DNA of 64,000 nt from Eledone cirrhosa. Lineage: Eukaryota. This document shows, piece after piece, positions 10,853 to 51,838 of this stretch (position 1 is its first letter; each line of letters opens with the position of its first letter). The stretch spans positions 37,944,001 through 38,008,000 of the forward strand of contig OZ024745.1 in assembly GCA_964016885.1 (NCBI GenBank). The letters are read 5' to 3'. Both the position numbers and the translations under genes were made by a program. The notes beneath the pieces are model-generated. The model did no database searches, had not been told where the DNA came from, and saw nothing but the letters and a program-made list of their open reading frames with translations.

Positions 10853-10981
10853 GTATATATAGATAGATATAGATGCAAGGGAAAGAATATATTTATAATT
10901 CTTTCAATTTTGCTCTTTCCTGATGAAAGTCCGATACGTTGACACATTTAGTTTGTGTCTTCATTCCCAAGCGTGAAACTA

Positions 10982-11171
10982 ATAATTGTTTCTATTTTTG
11001 GCACAATGCCAGCAATTAACCCTGTGCATTACTGGTACTTTATTTTGTCGACCCTGTAAGGATGAAAGGCAAAGTTCACCTCAGCGGGATTTGAATTCAA
11101 ATCATAAAGCACCGTAACTCTATGCTGCAAAGCATGGCGTCCAAGCCTCTATCGATACTACTAATCCACCG
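10982..11171 (-). mobile_element. tRNA-derived SINE with 14-bp TSD
   Basis: Reverse complement of the 1403 SINE; gtgaaactaataat at 10973-10986 and 11173-11186. Confidence 0.85.
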
Positions 11172-11244: not shown

Positions 11245-11249
<5 letters not shown>

Positions 11250-11457
11250 AAGTAAGACAGGAGAAAGTAAGACTCCCGACGGCAGAGCTCAAGCCATTTC
11301 GATGGCTATTTCTGTTTTAGTCCAGAAATAGCTGTCGAAACGGCTTGAGCTCTGCCGTCGGGGTCTTACTTTCTCCTATTACCCACTCTACTACCCTAAG
11401 TATTGAGTACTCTGGTGCGTTATGGTCCATCTGGTTCCTTACCACAACTCCCTCGTT
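11245..11457 (+). mobile_element. Fold-back 3' remnant of the PLE family at 47808-49625, inserted in (TA)n
   Basis: ~55-bp inverted arms (11259-11314 / 11323-11378) plus tail; 11318-11457 is the reverse complement of 47808-47950. Confidence 0.8.
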
Positions 11458-14395: not shown

Positions 14396-15007
14396 GAGAG
14401 AAAGAGAGATATTCTTTCATGAATGTTCTCAGGGAAAAATCTTCGTATTCACTTTTTGCAAAAAATTTATTTCATCACAAATACCTTTGTCAAATACAAT
14501 TTGCAAAACCAATTCTCACCCCGAAACTATTCTGCAAAATATGAGACTTTGTCTGACAAAAGTAACATCATATCGCTTTTTTTGTATCTAAGTTTACTTA
14601 GGAAAAAAGCCATCACAATAAAATATTTTTGAACCCGGATCTCATATTCTGTCATAAAATTTCGGATAGAGGGCTACTCAATGCTTTTACTGAAATTAGT
14701 AAATGTAACTCCAGTCTGTATTAACACTGGAAGAACATTGTCAGCCATAAATGTCTAATGATTTATTATACTATGAGTGAATGTACTAAATAGTTTGCTG
14801 TAGATTTAACTTTAGCTTGAATCCCTACGTATATCAGCGATGCCTGCTGCTCAAACACTATGTACTTTGATTTAACTATTCCACTGTGGACCTACGTCTG
14901 AAAGAAAAAAAGCATTACACATGGTCCACTTTGGGGAAAACATTCTCTACGTGTTATAATGTTAGCCAGAACATTATTTCTCAGTCACACAAAAGAATAT
15001 CTCACAA

Positions 15008-15197
15008 ATAACTGTTTCTACTTTAGGCACAAGGCCAGCAATTACCCAGTGCATTACTGGTACTTTATTTTATCGACCTCGTAAGGATGAAAGGCAAAGT
15101 CAACATCGGCAGGATTTGAACTCAGATCGTAAAGGGACGTAACTATGCTGGAAAGCATGGCGTCCGACCCTCTACCGATACTGCCAATCCACCGCCC
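15008..15197 (-). mobile_element. tRNA-derived SINE with 18-bp TSD
   Basis: gaatatctcacaaataac at 14995-15012 and 15206-15223. Confidence 0.85.
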
Positions 15198-15668: not shown

Positions 15669-15699
<31 letters not shown>

Positions 15700-15701
<2 letters not shown>

Positions 15702-16448
15702 GATAATTTAATATATCAACTAACATAAGCGCACAGATGTACGCTAATGTCAGCAAATACACAGGTTATGTCATAGTACCTAGGTGGTTCAATGCAGGAG
15801 GATGCAGAACAATAATATAAAAGACGTAAAATAAGAAAATTCTTTAAAAAAAGTTTTTAAAAAAAATTTTAACTTACTTACTTAAATTACTTACTTAAAT
15901 TTTCACTCCTTATTTTACGTCTTTTATATTATTGTTCTGCATCCTCCTGCATTGAACCACCTAGGTACTATGACATAACCTGTGTGTTTGCTGGCATTAG
16001 CGTACATCTGTGCGCTTATGTTAGTTGATATATTAAATTATCTATATTTATCTCCAAATCACTGATTTGTCGAGCAAACCTGCCAAAACCACTTCTAAAA
16101 AAATTTTTTTGGGGGTGTTAGTAGGCGTCTGTCATCTTACCATCCCATTCCTACTGACTAGCCTCTGTGTTACGTGATTGATTCTTTAGAATCGGCCACT
16201 TGACTAGAGGCAGTGAGGATTTCAGTGCATGGAATTCAGTCCCCGCTAGCTGTTCCATCTACCGAATTATTATTATTTTTATATGAGCCGCCAGTGTCCG
16301 CGCATTGCCTGGAGACTTAGCTGAGAATAGACTCCCTGATGACGCAATGAATTCTCGACAGTTAGATTATCCCATTGCAGAAACTAATTAGTTGGAGTGA
16401 AAATTTAAGTAAGTTAACATTTTTTTTAAAGAATTTTCTTATTTTACG

Positions 16449-20950: not shown

Positions 20951-21128
20951 TACGATGCAGATAAGAATAAATAATATTTGGAAATATCAGGTAAAGTAAA
21001 CCTGGAGGATGCAAGAAATGGATACAGACGCCTGCAAGGAATCGAGCTAATCATCTTCCACACACCGCTCAAGCGCACATAATCATGATACCAGAGCACA
21101 CACACACGCATATATATATATATATATA

Positions 21129-21260
21129 TAGGAAAAGAGTCAGGACCCCAGGGGTCCTGACTCTTTTTCTAGTACCCATTCTACTACCCTAAACCCTAAG
21201 TATCGAGTACTCTGGTGCGTTATGGTCCATCTGGTTTCTTACCACACTTTCTTTGTTATA
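21129..21260 (+). mobile_element. Minimal fold-back PLE remnant (same family as 11245 and 47808) in (TA)n
   Basis: Near-perfect palindrome taggaaaagagtcaggacccc-a-ggggtcctgactctttttcta followed by the family tail (ctactaccct...gagtactctggtgcgttatggtccat). Confidence 0.8.
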
Positions 21261-21262
21261 CA

Positions 21263-21360
<98 letters not shown>

Positions 21361-33056: not shown

Positions 33057-33058
<2 letters not shown>
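32720..33058 (+). mobile_element. 3' end of RTE-like LINE with C2H2 finger
   Basis: CSVCTRVFKSLAGLKSHTRSAH followed by a short 3' UTR, flanked by (TATG)n/(TA)n. Confidence 0.7.
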
Positions 33059-33110
<52 letters not shown>

Positions 33111-33117
<7 letters not shown>

Positions 33118-33833
33118 TAAAAGGAATTCCAGCTTTGTCTGATTTACTCGTTTTATTTACAATCCTTTAAAATTATAATGATATTATAATGAAATAGTAT
33201 GGTAGAATATTAAGTGTTAAATGTTAATGGAACAAGTAACTTCATGCTTGCATGACTACTGCTAATATGACTACGCCTACGACCATATCGACTACCACCA
33301 CTAACAACAACAATAATAAAGATAATAATAATAATAATAATAATAATAAAAGTGTTGTTGATGTTGATGATTACTGAAGATTTTTTATAAAAACCCTAGA
33401 AAATGCTATTTTCATCATTTCTAAAAATAGCAAAACAATTAATGCTTTGGATAGGGTCAAATAGAAGTCGTTAGACATACTCAACCAACCGTGACACCTA
33501 AACCAATCAGCTTTAGTAATCTTGTGAAACTACACACCGATTGGTCGAAATAGAGTTTGTAAAACTTAGCATTCTGTAGCCCCTTTTTACTGTATATAAG
33601 GCACAGATTTTACCCATCTCATTACAGTCTAAAATTGCAAACTTGACTGTCACCACTGAATATGAACCTGAAGATTGGGAAAGCATGAAAGTCCTTGTTC
33701 AATTAACATTTAACACTTAATATTCTACCATACTATTTCATTATAAATGTTTGTAAATAAAACGAGTAAATCAGACAAAGTTGTAATTCCTTTTATTAAT
33801 ATTATCTTCTATACACAATCATACACACCCGTG
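33111..33833 (+). mobile_element. Fold-back HHR element in (TA)n
   Basis: 33111-33249 inverted to 33681-33802; HHR-like gaac-CTGAAGA-...-GAAA-gtcc-TT-gttc at 33664-33700. Confidence 0.65.
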
Positions 33834-33839
33834 TATATA

Positions 33840-33883
<44 letters not shown>

Positions 33884-35048: not shown

Positions 35049-35384
35049 TTTTAACTTTAATTTTGAAAGTAGGTTTATAAGTATGATTTTTCATTAGATT
35101 ATTGTAGCTTTTCAGTGAACTAGCGGTAGGTACTAGAGACGGTGGAGATCATGGTCTTCGGTAGAATCCTGGTTGAGAAATACATGTAATCTTTTTTCAG
35201 TTTTTATTTTACATCCCATAGGAAAAAACTTAAAAAGTTTACCGAGAAACGTACTCCTGACCAGGACTGAACTCAGATCAGGATCACCACCGTATAAGAT
35301 TCATCCAACTAGGCCGCTGAGACAGCTACAAAAGAATAATAAAAATTAATAATTATAAACATACTTTCAAAATCAACGTTAAAA
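35049..35384. mobile_element. Degenerate palindromic MITE-like element
   Basis: ttttaactttaattttgaaagtaggtttataa pairs with ttataaacatactttcaaaatcaacgttaaaa; internal segments also pair. Confidence 0.55.
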
Positions 35385-35528
35385 GGTTGTGCTGCCGTTC
35401 ATGGCTTTCGTAGAGATATTAGTCATATTTAGGGTCGACTTACCAATCTTCTGTCTAAGAAGAATACACATAGGAATAAGGTAACTACCTCATTCCTATG
35501 TGTGTTTAACTGTTGAATTAATTTAATC

Positions 35529-36265
35529 TGATTATTTATCAAACAAATAATATATATATATATAAAAGAAATAGAATTTCGCTTCAAGCATAGCTTTATA
35601 CAATATGTATAAATATTTCGTATCTCCAAAGAAATACATTTTTAGGAAGCCGTAGTTATGCAAACACCTGGAGGGGGGCTTAAAGCTTGTGGTGATGTCC
35701 AGCAGAAGCAAGGGGGACAACCGTCTATGCATTTCAGGCTTAACTGGCCTTCGTCAGGACGGTCCCTCCGACCCCTTGCGACTGCTGGACTAGAAGACAG
35801 CTGAGAATATATACTTTTCTCGTCTGTGTAAATGAGGTGATTAATCTCATTTGCATATGAAGCTGCATAAGTTGGCTCAACTTATAATAAAAAAGAAATA
35901 CGATTTCGCTTCAAGCATAGCTTTATACAATATGTATAAATCCTATTTCTTTTTTATTATAAGTTGAGCCAACTTCATATGCAAATGAGATTAATCACCT
36001 CATTTACACAGACGAGAAAAGTATATATTCTCAGCTGTCTTCTAGTCCTGCAATCGCAAGCGGTGGGAGGGACCTCCTGACGAAGGCCAGTTAAGCCTGA
36101 TATGCATAGACGCTTGTCCCCCTTGCTTCTGCTGTACATCACCAGAGGGCGTTAGCCGCCAGGTGTTTTCATACCTACGGCTTCCTAAAACTGTATTTCT
36201 TTGGAGCTACGAAATATTTATACATATATATATATATATATATTATTTGTTTGTTAAAATAATCA
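35529..36265. mobile_element. Palindromic HHR element: ~1.15 copies of a 327-bp unit plus an inverted copy
   Basis: Direct repeat 35564-35614 / 35891-35941; 35942-36225 inverted to 35605-35900; outer inverted termini tgattattt...aaacaaataa. Confidence 0.8.
35720..35763 (-). ncRNA. Minimal type I hammerhead ribozyme (degenerate partner at 36071-36112 +)
   Basis: accgtc-CTGACGA-aggc(cagttaa)gcct-GAAA-tgca-TA-gacggt; all stems perfectly paired. Confidence 0.85.
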
Positions 36266-36774: not shown

Positions 36775-37157
36775 GATTGGCAGTATCGGTAGAGGGTCAG
36801 ACGCCATGCTTTGACGCATAGAGTTACGGCCCTTGCCATTCTGAGTTCAAATCCCGCCGAGGTTAACTTTGCCTTTCATCCTTATGGGGTCGATAAAATG
36901 AAGTACCAGTAATACACTGGTGATTGCTGGCCTTGTGCCTAACGTAGAAACAATTATAACTGTATGTATATAATTATTTCTACTTTTGACACAAGGCCAG
37001 CAATTATCCCAGTGTATTACTGGTACTTTACTTTATCGACCCTGTAAGGATGAAAGGCACAGTTAACCTCGGAGGGATTTAAATTCAGACCATAAAGGGG
37101 CGTAACTCTATGCTGCAAAGCATGGCGTCTGACCTTCTACTGATACTGCCAATCCAC
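36775..37157. mobile_element. Tail-to-tail inverted SINE pair (36775-36957 +, 36970-37157 -)
   Basis: Two near-full SINE copies in opposite orientation, ~12 bp apart. Confidence 0.85.
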
Positions 37158-38349: not shown

Positions 38350-38895
<546 letters not shown>

Positions 38896-39588
38896 GGATT
38901 TAAATGGATATAGTTCAGTTAAAAGGAATTTATTGACACGTGTTTCAATAACAGTTACATAACCTGAAAACAGCTGCTATCTACAAAGTATTAATTATGC
39001 AGACACTCAATATTTCAATGTTATTATCAACTGTCATTTCATCAGAATAATTTTATTGAGAACCTGTTTGGTTTTTATAGAGAATATTAAGAGGGAGGGG
39101 TGAAGTTTTTAGAAGAATAGTTAAGGGAGTGGATAGAGATATTTTTGATAGCAGTGAGAATCTTTTTTAGCAGTGAGTAATTAGATTCCCATCTGTTGTT
39201 TTGACATTTTTATAGAATACGTTATTTGGCGTTGGTTATTTTTCTAAATCTATAGAAGGATTAGAGATAGTAAAGATATGTATGGTTGGTTTTGTGTTTG
39301 CACTTAATTAACATACAGACTTAAATATTTCTTTCAAGTGTACGTATCCGTTCGCCCACACATTCACACACAAACATATATGCACACCTCTACAAAATAC
39401 ATACACTCACATACACATACTTACATGCTCATACTTACATACATATATACCTGCACATATATATATATACATATATATACATATATATATATACATACAT
39501 ACGCATTCATGTATATACATTTTCATACTCAACTTATCTTCATATACACACGTATAGGCACACACATATATACATACATACTCCTGTC

Positions 39589-39637
<49 letters not shown>

Positions 39638-40030
39638 ACTTTAATACATGAATACACATACATCTAACTATACACATCAAACATATATATATATTTACTT
39701 ATTTATATACATTTTCACATATATATACATACATATGCTCGCTTTTAGACACATTCATTATAGCATATTCGCACCTATTCTCATCAGCATATCTTTCCAT
39801 TATTAGTGTGGTAATTTAAGGTTATTAATATACATGTATATGTTGAGAAGAGATTGTTTTTATATTTTTCTAACTAGATTGAGGTTTATATAGTTGGGGG
39901 GATGTCCCTCTTTTATGTAATATTCAGCTTGTTGTGGGAAAAAAGGGTTTTAGTTCGGTGGCGGCAGAATAATGTTCGTTCAATTCTGTTATTAAGCAAT
40001 TTCTTCTTGTGTGTGATTATGTAATAAATA

Positions 40031-41660
40031 AAGACCCAAGAAGCAATAAGATGGTTTAATAGCATTAGCAATAAGAATAAATCTAAGTTTATCCAGTTTG
40101 ATATCGACGAATATTACTCATCGATATCACCTGAAACTCTGAATAGAGCCATTAAGTTTGCTAAGGACAACTCTGACCTTACAAACAAAGAAATTAAGAT
40201 TATATTAGAAGCTAGGAAAACTATAATCAAATTTGAGAACAGTTATTGGGTTCGTAAAGATAGACCTTCTAACTTTGACATAAAAATGGGCTCTAACGAT
40301 TCGGCGGAAATAACTGATATTGTGGGGTTATTTATCACCTTTAGACTCCAGGAAAAATTCAGTATCTCAACGGTGGAATATACCGCGACGATATTCTCCT
40401 CCTAGTTAAAAACCTAAATAACCAAAAACTAGAAAAACTACGCAAAGATATAAGAAAACTACTACTTGAAATAGGACTAACTATAACATATGAATACAAA
40501 CTTAAAGTAGTTAACTTCCTGGATGTAACACTCAATTTAAACTCTGGTCTGATTAAACCGCTTCATAAATTGAATGAAAATCTCAAGTACGTAAATGTTG
40601 GGTCTAACCACCCCATCTCTATAATTAAACCTATCCCTAAAAATATTTCCCTTAGAATCTCGGGTCTATCTTCTAACATACAGGTATTTAAGGAACATGC
40701 CGAGTACTACGATAACGCCCTTAGTAAAGCAGGCTACCTCAACAAAATAGAGTATATAGATGAAAACAATCAAAACACCCAAAATAAATCCCACATAGGT
40801 AGATATAATAACACAACACCAAACCACACTTACTACCATAGTATACACACCAGTAAACCAACAAACAAAACTAATAGAAAGCGATGCAAAGAGTACTTAT
40901 GGTATAACCCTGAATACAATAGTTCCATTAGTACAAATTTACCAGTACTCTTCTTTAAAATAGTTAAGAGACATTTCCCTACATCACACAAATACCACAA
41001 AATCCTAAACCGTACCACTATAAAACTGTCATACTCTACAGCGTTAAACCTCGAACAACACATAAAAAAGATCAATACTAGAAGGTTAAACGAAAACACT
41101 AAAAACTTAAGTACAAAGAACACAAAAAAACAGTAGACAATACACTACAGAACATAAATAAACCACACCTAAATTCGTCCGCAATACTACTCCAGAGTAA
41201 ACCTAACTACAAAACCAACGTACACAACTGTAACTGCACCTATCCTGACAACTGCCCCCTCGGCAATAACTGCCTGGAAAAAAATATCATCTATAAGTGT
41301 ACCATTGAATCCGGAGGCAACGAGTGGTATTACGTGGCATCAACGGCAACATCGCTTAAATCTCGATTATATAGGCATTCTTACTCAATAAAACTCCAGA
41401 GCCAAAGAAATGTAACAACTTTAGCAGAAAATTCTTGGACGCTCAGGGATAGCGATCAAAAGTTTACCCTAAAATGGGAGAAATTAGCTAAAACCCAAAG
41501 CTTTTCCAGGAGCCAAAATTTCTGCAAATTGTCTAATCTTGAGATTTATTACATAATCACACACAAGAAGAAATTGCTTAATAACAGAATTGAACGAACA
41601 TTATTCTGCCGCCACCGAACTAAAACCCTTTTTTCCCACTACAAGCTGAATATTACATAA
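40031..41660 (+). pseudogene. PLE RT + GIY-YIG endonuclease pseudogene (YRDD-type RT, possibly Nematis-like)
   Basis: FIQFDIDEYYSSI, MGSNDSAEI, GIYRDD (40381), NFLDVTL, SNHP, WYNPEY, CNC...CPL...C...IIYKC...YVAST...RLYRH; frameshifts and stops present. Confidence 0.9.
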
Positions 41661-41935
41661 AATAGGGACATCCCCCCAACTATATAAACCTCAATCTATT
41701 TAGAAAAATATAAAAACAATCTCTTCTCAACATATATATGTATATTAATAACCTTAAATTACCACACTAATAATGGAAAGATATGCTGATGAGAATAGGT
41801 GCGAATATGCTATAATGAATGTGTCTAAAAGCGAGCATATGTATGTATATATATGTGAAAATGTATATAAATAAGTAAATATATATATATGTTTGATGTG
41901 TATAGTTAGATGTATGTGTATTCATGTATTAAAGT

Positions 41936-41974
<39 letters not shown>

Positions 41975-42494
41975 GGAGTATTTATGTATATATGTGTGTG
42001 CCTATACGTGTGTATATGAAGATAAGTTGAGTATGAAAATGTATATACATGAATGCGTATGTATGTACATATATATATGTATATATATATGTGCAGGTAT
42101 ATATGTATGTAAGTATGAGCATGTAAGTATGTGTATGTGAGTGTATGTATTTTGTAGAGGTGTGCATATATGTTTGTGTGTGAATGTGTGGGCAAACGGA
42201 TACGTACACTTGAAAGAAAAAATTAAGTCTGTATGTTAATTAAGTGCAAACACAAAACCAACCATGCATATCTTTACTATCTCTAATCCTTCTATAGATT
42301 TAGAAAAATAACCAACGCCAAATAACGTATTCTATAAAAATGTTAAAACAACAGATGGGAATCTAATTACTCACTGCTACCAAAAATTCTCACTGCTATC
42401 AAAAAAATCTCTATCCACTCCCTTAACTATTCTTCTAAAAACTTCACCCCTCCCTCTTAATATTCTCTATAAAAACCAAACAGGTTCTCAATAA

Positions 42495-42554
42495 AATTAT
42501 TCTGATGAAATGACAGTTGATAATAACATTGAAATATTGAGTGTCTGCATAATT
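42495..42554 (+). ncRNA. Hammerhead-like motif in the pLTR (mirror copy ~38993-39052 -)
   Basis: CTGATGA-aatg...catt-GAAA-tattgagtg-TC; stem I imperfect (aattat/ataatt offset). Confidence 0.5.
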
Positions 42555-42761
42555 AATACTTTGTAGATAGCAGCTGTTTTCAGGTTATGTAACTGTTATT
42601 GAAACACGTGTCAATAAATTCCTTTTAACTGAACTGTATCCATTTAAATCCTTCTATTTTCTCCGGATTACTTTTGAAACTACAAATGGAACCGTCGAGC
42701 AAACTCTACGTGAGCTGTCCATCTACTGTGTGTAATATTCATATTACAACACTACGGAAAA

Positions 42762-44165
<1,404 letters not shown>

Positions 44166-44177
44166 TATTAATTCAAA

Positions 44178-46245
44178 ATATTAACAAAATAGATATTCTT
44201 GTGATGAAGTATATTTTATTATACATATTTCAGAGGTACGTCCTCATCAGATAAAATAAGATGATGCATGGCATAGTAGATGGTTAAGATTCAGTCATGG
44301 TAGTGAGTAATATATGACAAAACTCAATATTTATACCCTAATATTGAGAACATGAGAAACACATATAATACATACAATAGAGAGGGTGCGTGAAATACAG
44401 CTAAAAAAATACATGGCCTCAATATAACAGTTAAAAAACTTTTTTTTTAAACTACTGAAGAAAGAGGAAAGAAAGGAAAGCATAGAGGAAGAAACAGCTG
44501 ATGGGATAATATAGTTAGTAGGTGCCCCGAAAAAAACAAATGAGAGATGATTAAAGAGAGAGAGAGACAAAGGGGAATAATTTATGTTCAAGTTTATAGA
44601 CAATTATCCATATATGCAATATGTATCTAAAACTTATTTGGTTGACCGTTAATATTCAAAATATTTAATTGAAGTTATTTCAGAGTAATGAGTAATATTT
44701 TAGGTTTTAAAAGTTAATAGGTATCTGTATTAATATTATATTATTCTATCAAGTTTAGTTTCTAAAATTAAAATTTTATGAAATCAAATTTAAAGGATTT
44801 ACGAAACACGAGAAAGAATGCTTTTATAGCCTCACGAATGTAATCTTTACCAAAATTATTTATAATATTGACAACAGTTTATATAATATAATTTATAAAA
44901 TAATTATAGTTATAATTATTAAATAATTTATGATTAACAGTTTGATTGCCTAAAGGATCAACCGGCCTTATAATTAAACTTAAAGAAGTCTGAATTTTTA
45001 ATTATATATATGTGTTAATAAAAAAAATACACAAGGATTATAATGTCTAAATATATATAACATAATACAATAATACAATATAGTAAATATGTTACTGAAA
45101 ATATTGTTAAAAAAATATTGTTAAAAATTAATGTTTTATATCAATTATTGTGAAATGTTCATTTAGTTGATATATACTATAAATATATAAATCAAAACTA
45201 CATGATTCCTAAGGATAGGGGCTAGATACACAATAAATATAAAGATAAAAAGTGAAAAATAATGAATTGTTTGCGAAACTTAAAAATGCCCAATATTATA
45301 ACATATAGTATAAAATGTAATAGGGTTTTAATATATAGTAGACAAAAAAAACTTCTAAAATATCCAGCGAATGTGATAGAAAGAGGAGCTAAATATTTGA
45401 AAAAGCCGAAGGTAATCTAAATTTAATTAAAATAAAATAAATTAAATTAAATTATATTAAATTAAATAATAATCATTATATAAATTCGAACTTCCAGAGA
45501 ATATCTAACACTTATAACAATAGAGAGTCATTTGAGTATCTAAATTATTTATAAATGTAACTACGAGTATGTTATTACACTAGATAAACATATTTGTACA
45601 ACTATATAGAGATATTATTATAGGTGAAACGATATACATTTAATAAATAAATAATTATAATCATTATTAGTAATGCTATAATTGTAGGTTTACCTCCAGT
45701 TCAGTGGAGAGAGAGACCAATATTTGTAGATTATTATGGTTTGTTATATTTATACCTAGATATATATAACATATATAAATGCAAATCTAACTTTCTGAGT
45801 CCCCAAAACATACCCAAAATGAGTAAAATATGCAAATGTATGAATGATATACAGTTCAATTATAACCGGTAAATTTACAAGTTAAATATCCAAATTATAT
45901 ATTTAAAACAGAGACAGATAAATAAAAATGTATGTATTATATGTGTTTCTCATGTTCTCAATATTAGGGTATAATTATTGAGTTTTGTCATATATTACTC
46001 ACTACCATGACTGAATCTTAACCATCTACTATGTCAGGGTAGGTCAAGCATCATCTTATTTTATCTAATGAGGACGTACTGTTGAACTTAACTCAGTACC
46101 TCTGAAATGTGTATAATAAAATATACTTGATCACAAGAATATCTATTTTGTTAATATTAATAACTCTTGAAACCTTGCTGTTGAGTGCTTCCAATCTATT
46201 GTAAAACTCATTCTTTGATGTATTCATCGAACCTTGTTTAACTTT

Positions 46246-47768: not shown

Positions 47769-47807
<39 letters not shown>

Positions 47808-47810
<3 letters not shown>

Positions 47811-49625
47811 CAAGGAATTGTGGTAAGGAGCCAAATGGACCCTAACGCACCAGAGTACTCAATACCTAGGGTAGTAGAGTGGGAAATAGGAAAAAGTATG
47901 TCCCGACGGCAGAGCTCAAGCCGTTTCGACGGCTATTTCTGGACTAAATTAGAATGTTTAGCCTATTGAATAAATAGCCGAACTTTTCAAGGGGGTACTT
48001 CCTTATATGGGAAGATTGTAGTTGTCAAGAGGACTGGTTAAAATTTGTTGTAAACACAAATAAGTCTATCATGGCATTTGGTGGGAAGTAGGGGTGGCTG
48101 AACTTGCCTGTAGAACAATAGGGGAGTGAGTGGAGCGATCAGGCGTTGAAAGTGATATGTATACATCAGATTCTAGGGATAGTGTATTATTACAGGTTAA
48201 TAAGTTGAGAATAGAAAAAAACTTATAGAAATTACAAAACAGATACAAACTTATAGGGGTTTTTAACACATCTGCTATAAGTAGTTAGTAAAACGTATTC
48301 GGCCAATTCTATCTTAAAATATCAGGGGTGGGGGAACTGATGCTACAAGGCCCGATGGGCTGCATCGGGGTAGGCAAAAGGGGAAAGCAGGCGCGGAAGA
48401 AAATAGGGGGTGGAAGGAAGTGATAGGATGAGACAGGGGTAAGAAGGAGACAAAGAGGAAAAGAAAAGAGATACAACATTTACCCATTTAAGCTGGGGTT
48501 TCTCCTAACTTATTCGGCAAGTGTGTGTTTGTGTGTGAGTGGGGGGGGGGGGTATCAACCCTTGCCTACCCACCCGGATCGTTATAGGGTTAGGGCGAGG
48601 TAAGTCCTACGCAATTTGTGTTTGCATGCGGGTACCAGTTCATCTTTCTTGTTTAGGAGTTGGTCCTTCGAAAACAGCATTTGTAATGTTTCCTCCGAGC
48701 ATAAGTTACACGGACGGCGTCCTCCCGTGTAAGACTTAGCTCTGGACACTAAGCTCCAAGTGAGATTGTAGCTTATATGTTATCTTGGAGGTCCCAGATG
48801 TGGCCCGAAAGTGTAGTGGCATGTCGCCGAACCGGGTTTCGGAAAGTGCGTCGGTGTTGGTAGAGCCGGGTCTTGAAGTCACACGCGGTTAATCCTATAT
48901 AAGCTTTGTTGGAGGTGTCCGTCCTCACGTTGCACTGGTAGATCACGTTACATTCTCGGCATTTGTTGTTGAGGGGGCACGTGGATCTATCAGGGCAGTT
49001 ACACATCCTGGTCGGCTCTCCACTGATGTCTAGGTTATTTCTTCCATAGGGGTTGAGTTTTTTGTTGTTTGAGGAGACGATGTTTTGTGCGAAGTTAGGT
49101 GTGGTGCTGTAGGAGAGTTTGATAGTGTTTTGTTGATTATGTTGTGGTAGCGGTGTTGTAGTGGGAAGTGTTTTTCGAGGAGTCTAAAGAAGATTTTCCC
49201 GATAGGTGTTGCCACCTCGGCATTGTGGGGAGGATTGAACACGTTACGTTGCGTGAGCAGCGGTGTCGCCTGCTGGTTCCGCTAAGGGAAGCTGGATAAA
49301 AGGATATTTCCTCCCGGAAGCCACTCTGCTTGAGGGCCTGGTTGTAATGAGGAGCATGTTCGTCAAATATCTGCTCATTAGTGGACAAACGAGATATGCG
49401 GAGGGAGGTGTTTTTAACCAGGTTATTGGTGATGTTTCTAGGATGGTTAGAGCGGCGGTGGATGTAATGCAGGTTGTCGTTTTGTTTCCTGTATGGGTAG
49501 TGCAGACCAAAGGGTACAACCACAGTAGTACAGATCGAGTAGTACAGACCGGGTCCGTAAACAACGAATCATCTTCTTCCGGGACTGGGGATTTAAAATC
49601 ACCTTACAAACGTCCCTAAAAAACA
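47808..49625 (-). mobile_element. 5'-truncated Penelope-like element (RT thumb + GIY-YIG + pLTR) with internal 5' inversion
   Basis: YIHRRSNHP, FNPPH, CNCPDRSTCPLNNKCRECNVIYQC...AYIGLT...RLYQH on the minus strand; 3' end runs into (TA)n at 47766-47808. Confidence 0.9.
47902..47994 (-). ncRNA. Type I hammerhead ribozyme in the pLTR, U3-A8 core variant
   Basis: ccc-TTGAAAA-gtt-cggctattt...aaatagccg-tc-GAAA-cggc(ttgagctct)gccg-TC-ggg. Confidence 0.75.

Positions 49626-50684: not shown

Positions 50685-51838
<1,154 letters not shown>

Follow-up and report, generated by a model that had tools for sequence, protein, structure and literature searches.

The feature at 21129–21171 lies within a 64-kb stretch, referred to as the window, whose host looks like a cephalopod, and consists of two reverse-complement arms of 21 bp each (21129–21149 and 21151–21171), which carry identical subfamily letters, differ at 1 of 21 positions and flank a single A at 21150 that matches neither arm; the palindrome and its extra A had been described in an earlier note on this DNA. 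DNA folding of the palindrome gives z = −6.5, with 0 of 200 shuffles equally stable, and the computed fold needs a 3-nt loop. The forward copy extends ~87 nt of tail past the palindrome, to about 21258, and this tail is present on one arm only; the tail-less arm ends at family position 47886, where loose ends followed by (TA)n are observed in reads, an end common to hundreds of other read records. Both flanks are (TA)n, inside which no target-site duplication is readable. The feature is a real, head-to-head, 5′-truncated stub of a Penelope-like element (PLE) in (TA)n, a known insertion form (Table 1). Retrozyme and MITE-like readings of the stub were ruled out, given the lack of tandem units and of a ribozyme core and the presence of a PLE tail and a coding relative; the non-LTR retrozyme definition used, taken from part of bioRxiv 10.64898/2026.07.22.740005, is tandem units each with a complete hammerhead, and the locus holds a single head-to-head stub without the core.

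Table 1. Positions of the stub, its relatives and the predicted hammerhead sites within the window
Feature	Position	Strand	Basis
(TA)n target run, left	21110–21129		sequence
Inverted tail-less arm, family +1 to about +21 after predicted hammerhead cut	21129–21149	−	alignment, reads
Single A, likely untemplated RT addition	21150		matches neither arm; 1–5 extra bases at other family joints
Forward copy, +1 after predicted cut through tail, without ribozyme core	21151–21258	+	alignment
Palindromic part; tail (both within forward copy)	21151–21171; 21172–21258	+	
(TA)n-rich run, right	21259–21357		sequence
Predicted type I hammerhead, with an internal loop in stem I and a long stem II	47889–48001	−	free and constrained folds
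5′-truncated, frameshifted PLE assigned to the Hydra clade: RT thumb, CxCX5C linker, GIY-YIG endonuclease, 3′ region, predicted hammerhead, tail	47808–49625	−	
Second head-to-head family copy; arm starts in stem II (about −44 to −50 / −37), off the cut	11247–11457	+	
Head-to-head copy of another hammerhead family (predicted cuts 16394 +, 32327 −)	15693–16051		
Predicted hammerhead sites of repeat families	12474 (−), 35725 (−), 38442 (−), 44219 (−), 16394 (+), 32327 (−)		

Two further copies of the family were located in the window by BLAST, at 11247–11457 and at the 3′ end of 47808–49625 (minus strand), and insertion in (TA)n is common to all three window copies and to the read loose ends. The link to a coding PLE at 47808–49625 that the earlier note had drawn is real, with the qualification that this copy is itself truncated and frameshifted, retaining RT thumb and endonuclease: it aligns to residues 378–711 of ~720-aa relatives bearing YRDD and YIG motifs, carries the CxCX5C linker, and bears CxxC and CxH motifs in its translated endonuclease piece. 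A search of 1.84 billion proteins returned 2941 relatives at E ≤ 0.001; among the seven long relatives scanned, RWK/RWR was present in 3 and DKT in 5, the remaining relatives being shorter, and the region concerned (the RT N-terminus) is lost from the local copy and seen in relatives only. Because the relatives' RWK, DKT and YRDD motifs accompany the copy's linker and endonuclease motifs, the family is assigned to the Hydra clade of PLEs, an assignment made by the motifs of PMC8557442 with the RT core missing from the local copy. Linked RT and C-terminal GIY-YIG endonuclease domains, together with an inverted 5′-truncated copy and a one-sided tail, place it among EN+ PLEs. Pfam at curated cut-offs gave no match for 5 ORF pieces or 8 long relatives, a homologous-protein search limited to longer proteins gave 0 of 67 candidates, an exact 25-nt family motif had 0 matches in metagenome and viral contigs, and no related locus was confirmed among the viral contigs searched. 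A second Hydra-clade PLE, with RT core, lies at 38890–42657 (YRDD region 40034–41657), with a flanking 1140-bp inverted repeat, 96% identical, and minimal hammerheads at 38934 (−) and 42613 (+).

The long family copy carries a predicted type I hammerhead ribozyme with an intact U3–A8 core, which by its folding would cut after GUC. Three stems surround the core, with the 3–8 pair, GAAA and NUH triplet of this type: UUGA-N-AA at 47990–47984 (minus) constitutes the U3–A8 rather than the C3–G8 variant, GAAA lies at 47927–47924, and stem III is of 5 bp with a palindromic loop. The unconstrained minimum-energy fold of 47889–48001 is a three-way junction of z only −1.7, with 11 of 200 shuffles as stable, and the same hammerhead three-way junction is obtained when the core is held open. 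The predicted cut falls between 47905 and 47904, a small correction to the earlier note, which gave 47902–47906 as the sequence immediately following the triplet; the copy is without one G of the G run that most reads carry. An Rfam search of the 64-kb window at E up to 1 yielded no hammerhead among 130 matches, all microRNA-like or other sub-threshold. The U3–A8 variant is described for Schistosoma PLEs in part of PMC4209133; it also occurs in families of the genome record G001, introduced below, and is missed by descriptor scans for CUGANGA. At least 8 distinct hammerhead-bearing repeat families are found in the 64 kb, none of them in the Rfam listing.

By alignment to family copies 11310–11457 (GTC = 11357–11359, first G = 11360) and 47808–49625 (minus), the first base of both arms is the base following GTC, so that both arms begin immediately after the GUC of the predicted hammerhead, as had been claimed. 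Reads were aligned to 47806–48400 at 80% likeness, with 4 of 9 runs used: X1 (15302 contig pieces), X7 (22644 RAD reads), and, each from a further organism, X4 (28 pieces) and X6 (17 pieces). An X7 consensus of 1548 reads with a loose end at 47894 carries the subfamily letters of the 21129 copy followed by CCCC and the complement of GTC, and the stub start is thus exact in its own subfamily too; the same consensus continues into the ribozyme, so that the stub's subfamily mostly reads through the predicted cut. Variation at N7 (47986), the free position of the core, is present in roughly half of the X1 depth and of the X7 reads, and a C is inserted behind 47901 in 4376 of 5975 X7 reads.

Read depth across the family, which in the form of RAD reads and summed contig depth does not equate to copy numbers, peaks just 5′ of the predicted cut (47906–47945) and drops ~tenfold only beyond 47945 (2.9e6 to 2.8e5 in X1; 7716 to 870 in X7), so most family copies run through the predicted cut. 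No pile of molecule ends was present at 47904 among 6 of 7 rows examined. At 47904 and 47902 there are loose ends (75 contigs for the former; 289 contigs and 5268 reads for the latter), but these do not count as cut-site ends, their consensus running into the ribozyme or the tail-less arm; they arise because of indels in the reference copy, and such indels at 47897–47902 may also hide short arms. The best-supported 15 of 28 joints, which are not a random sample, include 9 strand changes, that is 18 ends, with 1/18 at the cut (47904; chance P 0.17; an opposite-strand joint with 19 reads and 4 starts) against 7/18 at 47942–47945, 38–41 nt upstream within stem II (scan-corrected P 0.0003). A symmetric fold-back at 47942/47943 is observed in reads, and 1–5 nt of extra bases occur at several other joints of the family; the extra A is therefore not specific to the cut.

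Eight head-to-head insertions with an identifiable hammerhead family, comprising 16 arm ends, are found in the window, and an arm at the exact predicted cut is present in 2 of the 8 (3 of the 16 arm ends). These are the 21129 insertion, with arm starts at 0/0, and 15693–16051, whose minus arm begins right at the predicted cut (15909) and whose plus arm begins at +44 to +48, with 1-base microhomology; the earlier note took 21129 to repeat the 15909 observation independently, and the two agree in one arm only. Arms start at about −48/−14, inside stem III, in 50782–51350, and both lie >80 nt upstream of the cut in 38387–38719, 35603–36227, 38890–42657 and 44177–46158. The 11247 copy folds back off the cut and family copies mostly pass it, so enrichment at this nucleotide is not supported as a general feature. 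The window cut-site cases prompted the idea and constitute no independent test. Cut sites placed by eye beside the fold-back centres of the 51079 and 38577 regions were wrong, the true ribozymes lying elsewhere.

Several other inverted structures were recorded in the window. At 50782–51350 there is a young fold-back with 272-nt arms, 100% identical; its junction falls within stem III (19 bp) of the hammerhead, whose cut is at 51621 in the neighbouring copy (51573–51813), and the arms are joined via short microhomology supplied by stem III. A 185-nt dispersed repeat, which we take to be SINE-like, occurs at 1403–1586 and in about 12 further copies (for example 10978–11171, 15004–15194 and 36775–37154), 82–95% identical, with one head-to-head pair at 36775–37154 and no hammerhead found by motif scans. 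Palindromes or inverted pairs near (TA)n at 35463–35506, 33057–33880 and 35049–35384 have no ribozyme-bearing relative in the window.

An independent set was drawn from the DNA of another host, present as contigs inside G001. Protein alignment led to 100 loci of Hydra-clade relatives, 12 of them from these contigs, and the resulting set comprised 160 loci of 1.54 Mb (140 contigs whole or largely so, and 20 short windows), picked by ribozyme motif or family match, with 4 of the 6 family searches represented by the best 40 of more or by those among the matches listed; the 20 short windows, picked after match starts were known and over the whole −30 to +40 range, gave 1 of the 4 starts at the cut reported below. 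The first 120 loci yield 124 hammerheads, which group into 38 clusters. Copies that include the entire ribozyme (105), starts upstream of −40 (57), copies of <85% identity (19), at contig edges (4) or still homologous upstream (3) were set aside, and rows at +7 and +28 were removed for a chimeric reference; 80 copies were kept. Exactly at the predicted cut (position 0) lie 4 of the 45 kept starts within −30 to +30, in four different families, with a binomial P of 0.006 for a position named in advance, 0.011 with filtered rows restored and 0.012 without family F22; widened to −1 to +1, P is 0.18 and the excess is gone. Position −22 also holds 4 starts, and none occur at −4 to −1 or at +1. The proposed enrichment of starts at GUC|GGGG is thus borne out only in part, by a modest excess at the exact base in these genomic copies; among the read joints the upstream ends prevail over the cut.

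Among the copies starting at 0, L138 is a cut-centred palindrome whose arms begin at 0 and +2 and which has one additional A, and L109 folds back at 0/+60 through a single base of microhomology, resembling 15909; symmetric fold-backs elsewhere in G001 stand at +4/+4, +8/+5 and −38/−38. Family F1 sits behind a Hydra ORF, and the other three families with a start at 0 are linked to PLEs by tail and inverted-arm structure only. One of the four, F22, includes many copies whose core is changed; 10 of its 42 copies start at −35 to −38, a larger hot spot than that at 0. In the 100 loci from other hosts, hammerheads were present with copies per family too few for start counts, and six further MAGs gave few motif matches, near control level.

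The main start hot spot lies 35–41 nt upstream of the cut in both the 21129 family and F22, about 135 nt from the tail end, within stem II in the window family (47942–47945) and just before stem I in F22. It exceeds the cut-site signal, and could reflect a site where transcription begins, where RT stops strongly or where a protein leaves its footprint. Eukaryotic host contigs bearing PLEs occur in bacterial genome records, in G001 (L080, L083, L084, L086, L090, L092, L093 and L095–L098) and likewise at L078, L079, L085 and L089; G001 contains some 740 short eukaryotic host contigs and a few long ones.

Both halves of the stub start at +1, and the balance of evidence tips modestly towards the explanation that the ribozyme had cut the template RNA beforehand. 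In the proposed sequence of events, the element protein would nick the (TA)n target on both strands, and cDNA would begin at the two fixed internal start sites of the family, one at the tail end (+97) and one at the tail-less end (about +19 to +21). Both RTs would then run off the same RNA 5′ end, the predicted hammerhead cut, after which one RT might add an untemplated A and jump onto the other cDNA at its 3′ end, or repair might join the two ends. Templating on cut RNA is likely a minority route, most family copies deriving from RNA that extends past the cut.

An ordinary PLE inversion might instead have ended, through a cDNA stop or later trimming of the centre, at a random base that coincides with the cut by chance, the ribozyme being uninvolved. 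This is judged less likely, though a fair rival, with several observations in its favour: fold-backs of the family mostly end 38–41 nt upstream, the single end at the cut among the best-supported joints is at chance level, symmetric joints and extra bases are found at other positions, the window cases were chosen post hoc, and the two misplaced by-eye cut sites demonstrate how easily triplets are over-read. Against it stands the independent G001 set, with its 4/45 starts at a pre-named base in four families (P 0.006–0.012), among them L138, another palindrome that is centred on the cut and has an extra A. A quite improbable alternative retains uncut RNA, with RT stalling where stem I meets the three-way junction and so placing the cDNA stop at the cut; starts do cluster in or just upstream of ribozymes (stem II at 47942–47945, stem III at −48/−14 in 50782–51350, −35 to −38 in 10/42 copies of F22), and F22, itself a zero-start family, often has a changed core, but a stall would be expected to smear starts over several bases, where those of G001 fall on a single base and leave −4 to −1 and +1 empty.

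The geometry suggested in the earlier note, in which the 3′ cleavage product was copied once and then folded back, with a single cDNA of cut RNA copying itself over the added A, would accommodate the shared subfamily letters and the 1/21 mismatch of the arms, and self-priming has been proposed for PLE palindromic junctions in part of PMC3846280. It is less likely, with a slightly slimmer chance than RT stalling on uncut RNA. The short arm meets (TA)n at the fixed tail-less end (47886), fitting a second start site, and folding back would require a separate endonuclease cut there; the asymmetric cases (0/+44–48 and 0/+60) indicate that arms end independently. By nucleic-acid geometry, priming is impossible from a hairpin whose loop is 1 nt long and whose 3′ end is not already paired, and the fold computed for the palindrome calls for a larger loop.

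Extended to the living animal, templating on cut RNA would mean that in germ cells PLE hammerheads cut and the 3′ product is reverse-transcribed from both internal sites, with the stubs 21129, 15909, L138 and L109 as its genomic record, joined by template jumping; this broader proposal is advanced tentatively, as slightly less than an even prospect. The data hint at one new element: in two hosts, slightly more copies than expected start exactly at the cut, alongside larger upstream hot spots. A one-base genomic start peak at the cut would provide evidence of cleavage in vivo from existing assemblies; if the proposal is true, mapping of copy starts reads out ribozyme activity per family, and the larger hot spot 35–41 nt upstream marks a second, uncut RNA end. 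The existence of symmetric stubs limits the ways in which the inverted arm can be made. The cut-site signal is small, a testable lead atop a known insertion pattern. At stake is the role of PLE hammerheads, whose function is called unclear in the consulted part of PMC8557442 and without in vivo evidence in that of PMC4209133, and which the sole in vitro system, according to passages of PMC11167929, found dispensable.

The standard EN+ PLE insertion, as described in passages of Craig et al. 2021 (PMC8557442), comprises a pLTR, an adjacent inverted 5′-truncated copy and a one-sided tail, and head-to-head junction palindromes are described, and read as self-priming, in part of Arkhipova et al. 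2013 (PMC3846280). The stub shares with this unit its head-to-head arms, junction palindrome, one-sided tail and (TA)n setting, and its family the hammerhead in the pLTR; it is distinguished by its extreme shortness, a tail of about 80–87 nt versus 30–40, and both arms at the predicted cut. Within the main texts and passages of the literature searched, as distinct from supplements, PLE copy starts at the hammerhead cut are unreported. Section 11 of PMC8557442 attributes to Hydra PLEs a CxCX5C linker, CxxC and CxH around conserved E and N, and (TA)n insertion; the family shares CxCX5C, CxxC/CxH, the (TA)n target and the hammerhead, its relatives carrying RWK and DKT, and departs from that description in the missing N-terminal half of the local copy and in a predicted ribozyme with a U3–A8 core and 5-bp stem III.

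For the anole Poseidon PLE, passages of Frangieh et al. 2024 (PMC11167929) report that in vitro both target strands are nicked and extended, that two internal start sites bound the tail, that insertion is unchanged by ribozyme mutants and that none of the RNA-seq reads had its start at the cut. A pair of fixed internal RT start sites and two-strand nicking at AT-rich DNA would be common to that element and the family considered here, where, unlike in the anole, a minority of genomic copies start at the predicted cut; the dispensability of the anole ribozyme counts against the explanation by cut-RNA templating. In R2, the 5′ junction is determined by the cut of an HDV-like 5′ ribozyme, and untemplated bases are added as the RT runs off, according to passages of Eickbush et al. 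2013 (PMC3774820). The ribozyme and the element class are other ones here, and the main R2 route leads to full-length 5′ ends, where the route proposed for PLEs would be minor and lead to inert stubs; in both, by this proposal, a ribozyme cut would set the cDNA end and untemplated run-off bases would serve joining.
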